Position numbers and translations under genes: made by a program. Positions 7,143 through 48,442 of a stretch of DNA of 64,000 nt are shown here, one piece after another. Each line of letters starts with the position of its first letter. Position 1 is the first letter of the stretch. This DNA comes from Eledone cirrhosa (taxonomy: Eukaryota). Below the pieces are notes generated by a model. The model saw nothing but the letters and a program-made list of their open reading frames with translations. It did not search any database and had not been told where the DNA came from. The DNA lies in NCBI GenBank assembly GCA_964016885.1, contig OZ024740.1, positions 402,628,001 through 402,692,000 of the forward strand, read 5' to 3'.

Positions 7143-7335
7143 GGAACAAGTATGACCCAGACAGCAGAGCTCAAGCCGTTTCGACGGCTAATTCTGGACT
7201 CAGAATTAGCCGTCGAAACGGCTTGAGCTCTGCCGTCGGGGTCATACTTGTTCCAATTACCCACTCTATTACCCTAAGTATTGAGTACTTTGGTGCGTTA
7301 TGGTCCATCTGGTTCTTTACCACATTTCCTTCGTT
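7143..7335 (+). mobile_element. Short fold-back element in (TA)n: ~54 bp palindromic arms carrying an HHR 3' half, plus an 80 bp tail
   Basis: Arms are 7143-7196 and 7201-7254 around loop GACT. The right arm reads long hairpin-GAAAC-GGC(ttgagctct)GCC-GTC-ggggtc. TA repeats on both sides. Confidence 0.8.
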
Positions 7336-7489
7336 ATATATATATATTTATATATATATATGTGTGTAGGTGGGGGGTGAGTGTATGTGTATATATGTAG
7401 GTATGCATGAATGTGGGTATTTACATATTCATCTGTCTCTCGCAATTTATGCGACACTATGCCACTCTATGCCCATGCTTACTATTCTC

Positions 7490-7695
7490 CGCACGCTATG
7501 CCACCGATGTTGCCCAAGGCAAAGGCAAAGATCAATACAGCTTTGCATCTGTGTCGTCGCAACTCATTTTTCCAGCTGAATGAACTGAAATCACGCGAAA
7601 TAAAGTGTTTGCTGAAGGACAAAATGCAGCGCTTGTTGTGAGAATCGAACTTACAAACTCACGATCGTAAGCCCAACGCTCTAACCACGTAGTTT
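7490..7695 (-). mobile_element. Degenerate tRNA-derived SINE, family B
   Basis: The minus strand reads tggttagagcg...gtaagttcgattc (A and B boxes), then tgtccttcagcaaacactttatttc...cagctg. Confidence 0.6.
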
Positions 7696-9754
7696 CTGTC
7701 GAGCAAATTCTACTCACAAGTTTTCAGTCACGGCTTGTGTAAGAAATAGGATCGAACATTGCATTACTTGCTTGTAAAATGAATTTCTTATTCATAAAAA
7801 TATGTTAGTATTCTTGAATTTGGATTGAAAAAGTTTGAGCGAAAATTAATATGAACAGAGAAACTAATTATGAAAAGAATAAAAATATGGAAATGTAATT
7901 AATAAAGAAAGGATATAATTATGAGGGAGAGAAGAAATGAGGTATTGAATATAATGAAAAAAGATGATGAAATGAATAAGACCACATGGCCGGAAATAGA
8001 AGAATAATTAACAAATAAAATTAATTATTTCGTGAGATTTCGGGTAGCTGGAAGTAGGAAGTTGCGGATATTTTACTTTTGTGTTGGAGGAAATAAGTAT
8101 ATGAAGTTGGACCATTTTTCGACAATGCCCTGTTTTTTTATTATCTTACTTTTTAATGACGAGAGGAAGGCTAGCTCTCGTGGTTTTGCTCATTTATCCA
8201 CGGCCTCCGAGATTACAGGTAAGGACGAAAATATCTATAATTCGAAGACCTCGCTTGAATGTTTCCTGTAGAGCCAATCCATTAAAATATCCAATGACCA
8301 AATGAGGATGTTAAAACGGGTGACGATATATCCATGTGGGTTACATCAACATTAAAACTCAAAAGAAAAAGAGCCCGAACATATTCTATAGGGCATTTTA
8401 GTTATTCCCCTCTCACTCTTTTATGGTACTTTACTTTGTGTGAAAGGAGGACATGTAATGTTGGCTTCGGTATGATTTGAACTCTTCTTGTAGATAGCCA
8501 AAGAAATACGGCAGCCAATTCTGTCCTATATTATAATCAGTCTGTCAATTCGACGCCTCTTTTTCCGGTTTTTCCTTTTCGTCTGGTTTCTTTATGTCTA
8601 GCTACTCATCTTACTTCTGTCATTGTTCTCTTCATGATTACTACTTTTTGTCTGTATGCCCTTCTTTAATTCTATTTTCTCTAGAATTTTCTTCGTGTAT
8701 TCGAACACTTGATAACTATTTTATTTATCTATTTACGTTTCTCCTTCTATTTTCATTTCCTATGTTTTTAGTTTCCGTCTTTCCTCAACAACCTAGCTTT
8801 CTTTATCTCACTATGTCGTTTTCTTTCATTCTTTATCTCGTCTAATCTTTATCTACCTCTTTGCCGTCAGTCCTTGAACATAGCTATTTTCTGGCAAACG
8901 AAACGTTTCCCTGTAACACCTTTTAACAGCTTCGCGGCAATTTCCTGATCCTTTCATCACTTCAACTACAAGATAATACCAAAGCTTTGATTAGTATTTA
9001 CACTTCAACCTTTATAAGTGTGCTTTGATTTTACTTTTAAACATTGCCTTTTATGTATGTCAACATATATTTAAACTACTCCACACCACTAATGATACGT
9101 CTTCTCCACACGTTTATACAAGGCTAATGTAAACGGGCCATAGATGTACAGTTTCTTCAGAGGTTAGTAATATCAGATAAAACTTGAGAGGGAAGGTTAA
9201 CATTTAACATGTCTAAAAAAACAAATCAATGTTCAAATACGAAACAAGAAGAAATAGAATGTCAATGTCAGTGACGAAAATGAGAATATATTGGAATAGC
9301 TGGGACCAATGTAGAACAGAATTTGTCGATAGATAGAGGAGCTGACAGCTATTCTCAATTCAATCCTTTTTGAGTAAGTAAATTATTGCTAACATTAACG
9401 CATTGGATAACACAAATTGTAGGCAGTGTAGCTGACCAGCTTTTACATTAAAACACCAAGAAAAATATTAAAGTCAAAAAGAAAATAAGAATAGGTTAGT
9501 TGGACTTTCCTTTCTATGAAATCTCTCTAAAAGACGATGCAGAAACATTACAAATATGAAATTAAAACTTTAACTTTAAAAAACAGTTTGTGTCAACGGT
9601 ACGTGTTGGTAGACTGGAATATAAAATATACATACCGACAAAAAGAATATATTGGTTTTGGTGTAAATCTAAATAGTAAACATGATACAATATATACAAT
9701 ATATAGCATATATACTCGCATGCACGTACACGCACGTATGCATTCATGCGCATC

Positions 9755-10400
9755 GGCGTTTCCCTCAGACTTGGCCTCCGGATCTGCGAGCCACACCAAT
9801 GTCGTTGTTGATCCACCGTGGACTCTTTCGGCCTCCACCCGCTTTCCTGTCGCCACAGTGCGGCCGCCTTCCACGCCATGCTACCTTCAACCAGGTCATA
9901 AAGCATGGCTTCGACGCTGCAGTCTTCTCTTCCCAGCTCGAATGGGACTGGACCGAGGGGACAGCAAAAGGCCAGATAGTATGACCATCTTCCCGTTCCG
10001 CGGTGGCAAACTCCTCGTCTGGGATGCAACTTGCACCAACACATTCTCCAGCCATAACCTAGTGCAGTCTGCGACTAACCCAGGTTCTGCTGCACTTCGG
10101 GCTGAGGAGGCCAAACTCTCCAAATACCGGTCACTCTCCGATAGGTTTGTGGTCGTACCCTTGGCAGTGGAGACTTCTGGTGTCCTCAGCCCTAGGGCTA
10201 CCTCCCTACTCACCACCATAGGTGCAGAGCTAGCCAGCCGCAGGTGTGAGCCTCGCGAGTTGGAATGGCTCTTCCAGCGCGTCTCCGCTGTCGTCCTCCG
10301 GGGAAACGCCTTCTCCATTTTGTCCGCCGGGACTGTGGGTTAGCCATCAATATTATTGACTGACTTGTCATTTTATCATGTGCCTTTTATATCTATATCT
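9755..10400 (+). mobile_element. 3' fragment of a CRE-like non-LTR retrotransposon (Zn knuckle plus restriction-like endonuclease)
   Basis: CEPHQCRC..HPLSC knuckle, then RHATFNQVIK, then KRPD...LVWDATC...AEEAKLSKY...VPLAVETSG...LFQRVSAVVLRGNA with stop at 10343. Frameshifted. Followed by a long (TA)n. Confidence 0.85.
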
Positions 10401-46600: not shown

Positions 46601-47104
46601 TTGTCTGTTCTTCAGCTCAACTTTAACACGAACAACCTATATTTTCACTTCAAAATGACAACTTTCACTATGTGTTCCTCTAATTCAATTGCTCTCCAGT
46701 AATGTCAACTAAATCATGCTTAATAAGCGCATGCGCCTATCATCGTTAAATGACTTTTACCATCTGTGTTATCTCCTCTCCCTTATTTTGCTATTTCTTT
46801 CTGTCTAAGTTTATTTTTGTTTTCGTTTTCTTTATATATTTGTCTATTCGGCAACCAATTCTTTTCTTCATTCTTGATTTTACCCTCATGGAATATGGTT
46901 ACTTTTGTTATAAAGGGGATCTGAAAAAGGGAAATGATGAAAGAAAAGAATAAGTGAAATGCACATATAAATGTCTCTGATGTGTATATTATACATATGT
47001 GTGTGTGTGCGTGTATATATGTATACACACAGTTATAAGTGCTCAATGTAACGTTTTTTATTAGGATTTTGTCGGTTCTGTGAAGTATGAACTTGTATGA
47101 ATTA

Positions 47105-47372
47105 ACGTCTACGTGATTGAGTTTTCCACAGATAGGTGTAACCTTAACGTATTTCTCTAGCCGAATCAGCGGGACTCATATGTGTGAGAGGACTTGGCCT
47201 TTAAATTACAGCACACCACTCCCGACAGATTTTCGACACAGTTTTTTCCAGTTTTAATCACATGACAGAGGAAGATCCAAGGCTATGGCAAAAACACTTG
47301 CCCAAATTGCCAAGGATTGAAATCGAACCCTGGACCTAATGATTTCAAAGCGATCCTCTTAATCACCTTGCT
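47105..47372 (-). mobile_element. Degenerate SINE remnants (families B/C)
   Basis: aacacttgcccaa...gaaatcgaaccc...cttaatcac gives a minus-strand B box ggttcgattt. Confidence 0.45.
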
Positions 47373-48249
47373 ATGTTTGTGGTCACATAAACGGATAATA
47401 TAAATCTACATCCGAACTTAGTTTGAACCTGCTTTGCTAAACCGCTGTCGCAGGTATCTGAATTCACAGTTATATGCATATTCTCTTTCTTTCACCCTCC
47501 TAATTTATGTGCCTACCTATTTCTCTCTCTCTCTCTCTCTCTCTCTCTCTCTCTCTCTCTCTCTCTCTCTCTCTCTCTCTCTCTCACTTACTCACTCACT
47601 CACTATTTCTCTCTCTTTTTTATATATCTCTCTCTATATATATGTATATATATATATATATCAAGAGAGAAAGAGCATCAATGAAATAGAGGGTGAGAGC
47701 GAGAGAGCTAGGCATAAATAATACGTAGAAAAGAAGAAATTGAAATGACAAGACGCCTGATAGAAAGACTGCCGGACAGAGCGAGTAGTAAAAAATGTGA
47801 GAGATAAATAAAACTGAAAGAAATGATGGTTGATTAATGAAACAGTTTACGACATTCTGCCAGAGAATCTGTCGATAATTGTTCTTATAGACATAATTAC
47901 AACAGTTCCCGACTCCACTGGCTACTGTTATATTCTACTGTTGTATTTCAGGCCATTGAAGGATTTTATTCATTGGGAGCCAATATTGTTGTGTCTTTGT
48001 TTGTGTTTGTGTCTGTTTTTCGTGGGCGTATATGTGTTTATATTTGAATTAATAGCGGTTTGTGTCTTTTTGTGTTATTGTATTTTTTTTTTTTTTTTAA
48101 TATCTGGCTGTTTCATTTGTGCGTTTATGAACCTGTAACTTTATCTATCATCGATTAACGTCTATTTACCTTCCTAGCAAATAAATATATATATATGTAT
48201 TTACATATACATCTGCATGTCTGTAATATATATATATATATATATATAT

Positions 48250-48442
48250 AACGAAGGAAATGTGGTAAGGAACCAGGTGGACCATAGCGCACCAAAGTAC
48301 TCAATACTTAGGGTAGTAGAGTGGGTAATAGGAACGAGTAAGACCCCGATGGCTGAGCTCAAGCCGTTTCGACGGGTAATTCTGGACTCAGAATTAGCCG
48401 TCGAAACGGCTTGAGCTCAGTCGTCGGGGTCCTACTCGTTCC
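48250..48442 (-). mobile_element. Second copy of the 7143 HHR fold-back element, opposite orientation
   Basis: Tail 48250-48330, then palindrome 48331-48442 around loop GACT. Flanked by (TA)n. Confidence 0.85.

Follow-up and report, generated by a model that had tools for sequence, protein, structure and literature searches.

A 64,000-nt window of the Eledone cirrhosa genome (contig OZ024740.1; genome of 3.0 Gb) contains two short palindromic insertions, copy A (7143-7335, plus strand) and copy B (48250-48442, minus strand). Each is a truncated stub left by a Penelope-like retroelement (PLE) that is very abundant in this genome. Positions are those of the window, the whole stretch that was analysed. 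Both loci lie within (TA)n and share a 193-bp layout consisting of a 54-nt arm, a 4-nt centre, a second 54-nt arm and an 81-nt tail. Their parts are listed here, where pLTR denotes the pseudo-long terminal repeat and ORF the open reading frame of the parent element.

7107..7142, (TA)n target tract to the left of copy A
7143..7196, minus strand, tail-less (distal) arm of copy A, 54 nt; begins at the first fixed start site and continues through the 4-nt centre, which makes it the longer arm by 4 nt
7197..7200, minus strand, centre of copy A, GACT, the reverse complement of the parent AGTC boundary
7201..7254, plus strand, tail-bearing (proximal) arm of copy A, the 3' half of the pLTR hammerhead, with pairing judged by eye from the parent; its predicted parts are the stem II 3' strand, GAAAC (7215-7219), stem III with a palindromic loop, a cut after 7237 and the stem I 3' strand
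7255..7335, plus strand, tail of copy A, 81 nt; equals the parent leader between two fixed start sites and in tandem parents runs on towards the ORF
48250..48330, minus strand, tail of copy B, 81 nt
48331..48388, minus strand, tail-bearing arm of copy B including the parent AGTC (centre 48385-48388); the longer arm by 4 nt
48389..48442, plus strand, tail-less arm of copy B, 54 nt; adjoins (TA)n at 48443

The original prediction had described both loci correctly in coordinates and letters. We confirmed that the loop reads GACT on the plus strand in A and B, hence inverted relative to the tail, that both palindromes stop at a common GGAAC beside (TA)n, and that the 5' half of the hammerhead is missing from both. 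Two sites had been named at which differences are mirrored on both arms of a copy; these are real but are not private to A and B, being subfamily sites of parents and many copies, and at a third site of this type the arms of copy B disagree with each other. A and B are identical at 173 of 193 positions. Mismatches between arms number 2 inside A, 4 inside B and 4-7 between A and B, and the tails differ at 5 of 81 positions. An origin of the pair by local duplication was set aside in view of their different haplotypes and the five tail differences. Minimum-energy folds were not significant (z -1.2 and -1.8), and the output of a repeat finder run on the whole window was dominated by microsatellites.

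A 25-nt sequence across the arm/tail junction had 17,385 exact matches in the genome, compared with 0 for a reversed control, and the palindrome is therefore not a product of chance. Most copies have shrunk to ~190 bp with both arms stopping at one point, and any target-site duplication would be masked within (TA)n. Counted genome-wide in a single haplotype and a single loop orientation, the A-type centre has 10 exact copies.

Of 30 loci selected through the tail, three extended upstream, and their upstream DNA, used as a query, retrieved long copies, of which 20/30 end past the tail and 10/30 at the arm end, both kinds in (TA)n. The parent has two fixed 3' ends that lie 81 nt apart and each start with TAT. 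In tandem copies (L125, L129 and others) the unit is 3559 bp (3.56 kb) and the tail runs into the leader and ORF; partial tandems constitute the pLTRs. At the level of motifs (DKT, YRDD, IY..YIG), the ORF encodes a PLE-type reverse transcriptase (RT) and, at its C terminus, an endonuclease of GIY-YIG type. YRDD is intact in L123 and carries a substitution in L125, and the frame is broken once in the copy examined. An adjacent, inverted, 5'-truncated copy accompanies 79 of 99 insertions in the census described below and 14 long copies. The tail is one-sided in 13 of these 14 and in 79 versus 1 of the stub sample, and at 81 nt exceeds the 30-40 nt described for such tails.

On its predicted protein motifs the parent is filed as a Hydra-like PLE. 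In common with the Hydra clade (Craig et al. 2021, PMC8557442) it has DKT in place of DKG (HSDKTGN), RW followed by a basic residue (LRWRT), a CxCX5C linker (CNCPDGSIC), CxxC and CxH motifs around E and N (CNLC..E and N..CKH), a C-terminal endonuclease and insertion into (TA)n, with TA before the tail-less arm in most copies and tails that end in TA. CCHH is missing from the parent protein as judged by eye. It differs in having RWR rather than RWK (its homologues have either) and, among the descriptive traits of the clade, in unit length (3.56 kb versus generally <3 kb) and in a non-canonical hammerhead core that was never CTGANGA among the core hits. A Pfam search of the ORF gave 0 hits, a PDB search gave nothing meaningful, and none of 2159 ORF homologues was informatively named. 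Two other classes were considered and rejected. A miniature inverted-repeat transposable element (MITE) does not fit, as all but 1 of the 80 two-ended copies have dissimilar ends and lengths vary; a non-LTR retrozyme does not fit, as the stubs are without the hammerhead 5' half, as is the sole short tandem (L172/L173).

Long parents do carry a putative hammerhead 5' half upstream, as had been predicted: a stem I strand (ACCCC), the core, a stem II strand and a ~32-nt loop precede the half seen in the stubs. Stems I-III and GAAAC..GTC are present by eye, with cores of CTGAGAA, TTGAGAA or TTGATAA, so that the expected CTGANGA core was absent from all core hits. The earlier proposal that the hairpin is an extended stem II is not supported, as the parent pairs stem II with a different 5' strand. 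Among 17 core hits at loci not chosen for the core (4 of 30 loci were left out of this set), the predicted U3-A8 pair occurs in 8 (TTGAGAA, TTGATAA) and a C3-A8 mismatch in 9. A contig from a related organism has TTGACAA; position 7 thus varies and A8 is constant. Minimal PLE hammerheads (Cervera and de la Pena 2014, PMC4209133) share the type I layout, a short stem I, a palindromic loop III and U3-A8 as a reported covariant; the structure predicted here differs in its 5-bp stem III, ~32-nt loop II and C3-A8 mismatches. No hammerhead was found by Rfam, and the minimum-energy fold of a mutated copy differs from a hammerhead. Arms that terminate 6-50 nt from the tail number 59, and 12 of them terminate at 16-18 nt, the predicted cut (3.9 expected; p 0.017 after a scan of all windows). 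This is only a hint that arms end at the cut, and G/C microhomology there could give the same result. Separately, CTGANGA followed by GAAA occurs in other repeats of the window at 11933(-), 12648(+), 13146(+), 24612(-), 28812(-) and 34924(-), which are possible hammerheads of other families.

A census was compiled from the first 100 matches by position on contig 1, representing 99 insertions, together with 29 tail-picked loci. Arm lengths were derived from anchored alignment, with 26 rows over both sets adjusted by hand. Two rows were dropped, L172 (the same insertion as L173) and L048 (copy B itself). The 99 insertions comprise 79 two-armed copies with one tail, 1 with two tail-primed arms and 19 without a detectable second arm. 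In 51 of 99 insertions the end of the tail-bearing arm falls at 54-64 nt, on the A of AGTC or next to it, and summed contig depth (not a copy number) rises ~12-fold at the AGTC position. Of the automatically called junctions, 59/67 are distinct; 30 have inserted bases, 29 microhomology and 8 are blunt. A/T runs of 17-18 nt occur at 3/67, and the junctions that recur exactly do so in 4, 3, 2, 2 and 2 copies. These data bear out the claim that the palindrome is made afresh at each insertion, but they do not bear out two discrete flip/flop isomers, since the exact A and B loops account for 0/99 and 1/99 insertions, respectively. Both loop orientations occur within the same haplotype (A versus L017; L018 versus B), and flip and flop are therefore two points on a continuum of junctions.

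Two further observations concern the centres and tails. In L105, L117, L135, L162, L167, L180, L187, L192, L196 and L199 a C replaces the boundary A, or a G replaces T on the other arm. This letter is unseen in parents and may have arisen through addition of a G without template or because a modified first base was misread. Rarely, both arms stem from the tail-end site (L019, at G000:C17:44327617-44327859, L098 and L126), and L019 is a full two-tailed palindrome.

Neither arm is consistently the longer. Among the 79 two-armed copies the tail-less arm exceeds the other by >=5 nt in 19, and the reverse holds in 18; when differences of any length are counted, the figures are 31 versus 32. In the tail-picked set the split is 5 versus 2. 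Long copies were chosen by 3' untranslated region likeness and counted by hand. Of the 14 with both ends readable, 13 have one tail, 1 has two and 0 have none, so the two start sites are coupled. In the 13 one-tailed long insertions, the tail-less arm is longer in 7 and the tail-bearing arm in 6, with differences of up to kilobases. Arms are closer within than between copies (1.16 versus 2.58 mismatches per 35 nt; n=56), as the original prediction stated. Excluding 8 rows with >6 arm mismatches or indels, within-copy agreement at the three subfamily sites is 73/80, 74/77 and 62/62 (34.6, 33.0 and 52.8 expected), haplotype agreement is 55/62 (19.3 expected), and rare mirrored variants number 7 versus <=0.7 expected. 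Both arms usually share one template. Several of the 7 haplotype-discordant rows are CpG changes; L008 and L011 differ at two linked sites, and their sequences suggest that two templates are occasionally used.

We consider it probable, at roughly 65%, that the palindrome represents two separately primed cDNAs joined head to head. The enzyme, possibly as a dimer, would nick both strands of (TA)n, and one RT would prime at each of the two start sites, which are separated by 81 nt, in most cases on a single RNA. Each cDNA would extend as far as the 5' end of the RNA, which is probably set by transcription starting at an initiator-like TTAGT within hammerhead loop II. Untemplated bases would be added, and host end-joining would then fuse the two cDNA ends. 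Flip and flop would be mirror outcomes that depend on which cDNA retains the last four bases, with a short fold-back of one cDNA end as a possible joining step in A and B. The stop point reads TTAGT or TCAGT and resembles an initiator. Two other accounts of the boundary were set aside. AGTC is unlikely to be a splice acceptor, given that most parents lack a GT donor, AG is retained and no upstream exon is joined; stalling of the RT at stem II is also unlikely, as arms stop past the stem and not at it. Precedent for parts of this scheme exists in an internal promoter described for Penelope (PMC2377424) and in PAc (Poseidon of Anolis; Frangieh et al. 2024, PMC11167929), the single PLE assayed in vitro, which nicks and extends both target strands, starts at two sites bounding the tail and is a predicted dimer.

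Sequence jumps from the stop point onto the ORF occur in L261/L262, L275 and L290. In addition, arm 5' ends are fused to the ORF at ~+255 or +956 to +975 in L172/L173 (G000:C1:27.009-27.010 Mb), L263/L264, L272, L275 and L290. Such chimeras may be template jumps onto shorter RNAs, and one is repeated as a 257-nt tandem.

Several points weigh against joining of two cDNAs as set out above. The census covers one contig arm and needs the exact 25-mer plus tail, which places older copies such as A, and stubs with two tail-less ends, outside it. The RNA start site is something we only infer. Among 28 distinct ORF-bearing insertions, only 2 begin <=3 nt from AGTC; ~13 extend further upstream, and in the remainder the start falls between +22 and +141, so longer or read-through RNAs also serve as templates. 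In 7/28 the end lies at +116 to +141, close to the tail-end start site, which may reflect collision with the second RT. Stub arms of L143 and L159 reach 3-13 nt beyond AGTC. Deletion of the hairpin centre after insertion could also give two-sided asymmetry and microhomology, and within-copy arm agreement is equally expected from fold-back. Lastly, both window copies have rare 4-nt centres, for which we have no account beyond chance.

The original prediction favored self-priming, in which a strand end folds back and copies itself; this was not new, having already been proposed as a hypothesis for such head-to-head palindromes, on an antisense RNA template, by Arkhipova et al. (2013, PMC3846280). 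Agreement of the arms within copies (55/62) and the 7 rare mirrored variants are what it predicts, and a number of centres either form small, perfect palindromes or have the potential to close a tetraloop. A copied arm can be no longer than its template, however, and the asymmetry is two-sided (19 versus 18 and 7 versus 6), which simple fold-back does not predict. The presumed copy exceeds its template in 19/79, at times by ~1 kb; in L137, L134 and L183 the tail-bearing arms measure 62, ~122 and 24 nt, as against ~0.8-1.4 kb for the tail-less arms. The few copies whose arms belong to two haplotypes, discordant at two sites in L008 and L011, and the extra bases inserted between two full-length arms also oppose copying of one arm from the other, and we regard self-priming as unlikely. 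Rearrangement after insertion would instead begin with a uniform palindrome, from which cruciform cleavage deletes the centre, recombination inverts the loop and gene conversion homogenizes the arms. Long perfect inverted repeats are unstable, such a process is symmetric by nature, and microhomology marks 29/67 junctions. Against this, both arms share the parent stop position far more often than deletion would yield, the 17-18-nt A/T runs are missing from the parent, and neither the jumps onto the ORF (L261/L262, L275, L290) nor kilobase differences between arms are explained; near-perfect young copies also already have diverse centres. This explanation is likewise improbable.

A palindromic master, MITE-like or RNA-borne, that is copied whole would account for mirrored sites and loop orientation through subfamilies. 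It draws on the few exactly recurring junctions, the two-tailed palindrome L019 and the identity of the mirrored sites with subfamily sites. With 59/67 junctions distinct, both orientations found in one haplotype (A versus L017; L018 versus B) and the same two ends present in an RT-coding parent, we consider a master very improbable. An assembly or long-read fold-back artefact might be suspected, as no short-read contig crosses locus A, yet it is scarcely credible: the two arms are not identical, the flanks show no mirroring and thousands of copies have an ordered structure. Raw Illumina reads from a different sample contain opposite-strand joints at the arm boundary (at the level of the family rather than of loci A and B singly), and one short-read contig crosses arm, centre and arm of a family copy.

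In L1 twin priming, a single RNA is copied from primers on both target strands, and microhomology serves to join the resulting cDNAs. Its second site is variable and its cDNAs cover different parts of the RNA, whereas the sites here are fixed and the cDNAs would overlap to give a palindrome. Parvoviral flip/flop termini and telomere-resolvase hairpins similarly present a palindrome with an asymmetric centre that is found in either of two mirrored orientations. The link to them drawn in the original prediction is not supported: these are internal chromosomal insertions of an RT element with dozens of centres rather than two, and no Rep or resolvase is involved. A parvoviral terminus was rejected in particular because it requires exactly two mirror isomers of a fixed hairpin, and 59/67 junctions are distinct. 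Canonical endonuclease-containing (EN+) PLEs (PMC8557442; PMC3846280) are closer, with pLTR tandems, an adjacent inverted copy, a tail at one end, a pLTR hammerhead (predicted in the present family) and an AT-rich target; they differ in tail length (30-40 nt versus 81 nt here), and the present family consists mostly of ~190-bp copies and has at least 17,385 of them. PAc, of another clade, starts without homology to its target, while the start sites here begin with TAT, matching it. The cited portions of that report (PMC11167929) offer no model for inverted copies.

The inverted-plus-tail architecture is already published and ordinary for the class, and what this family adds is a set of counts, which favor two cDNAs over self-priming and make the two-cDNA model testable. 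Craig et al. (2021, PMC8557442) called the origin of tandem and inverted PLE structures undefined, and the published guess was self-priming on antisense RNA (PMC3846280). A literature search, with subscription papers and supplements outside its scope (notably file S1 of Craig et al., which may list this family), found no Penelope model of head-to-head cDNAs from both strands; the portions consulted of bioRxiv 10.64898/2026.07.22.740005 and PMC6962438 held nothing decisive. A family with >17,000 near-identical stubs allows counts to separate models and links a genomic pattern to the 2024 in vitro result. If a dimer does use both break ends and both start sites on a single RNA, one event would account for the tail as well as the inverted copy, neither of which has had an explanation for a long time. 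A broader proposal, which we put forward tentatively and at slightly less than even odds, is that Penelope integration is inherently double-primed by a dimer, that priming on the 5' leader has produced tens of thousands of 'strong-stop' palindromes that are dead ends, that the U3-A8 hammerhead cuts in vivo, and that the same machinery moves a 271-nt tRNA-headed RNA, a would-be short interspersed element (SINE) partnered with a Penelope element. Annotators are likely to mistake stubs of this kind for MITEs or for genes of hairpin RNAs.

The tRNA-headed element belongs to a separate family and carries the same insertion signature.

32835..33238, plus strand, tRNA-headed element with head-to-head arms, a 33-nt one-sided tail and (TA)n

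Its unit is non-coding, 271 nt long, has the anticodon CCG and occurs also at 33769-33892 and ~62066-62311 of the window and at loci L201-L260. Two fixed 3' ends lie 33 nt apart. Most of 30 loci picked by its 3' part have an inverted arm from one fixed position, and in 30/30 loci picked by the 3' extension, this extension is joined to the head at one point (a 3'-to-5' tandem joint of the 271-nt unit). The arms frequently stop between -3 and 0 of the tRNA head or close to its 3' end. Since the tRNA head is where the 5' end of this RNA should lie, the arms that end there support run-off followed by head-to-head joining. The element has no homology to this PLE, and no partner PLE was found for it. 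Its structure makes it a candidate for a SINE that a PLE mobilizes, perhaps through a circular form; the same literature search, limited as above, did not find a SINE 'mobilized by Penelope'.

Other features of the window include a further copy of the family.

5976..6054, minus strand, third family copy, tail only, 90% identical to A

Directly to the left of A lies a second high-copy family (6914-7100, plus strand; 6069-6168, minus strand), two ends of which run into (TA)n ~80 nt apart. Opposite-strand joints of this family are present in reads, and its members probably represent stubs of a different PLE. Further families have palindromic insertions adjoining (TA)n at 24516-24770, 26607-26721 and 29230-29490, the first with a one-sided extension of ~80 nt. 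Broken ORF remnants of other Hydra-like PLEs occur at 3366-4638 and 35777-39550, the latter inverted, with 99% arms at 36633-36990/37342-37699.

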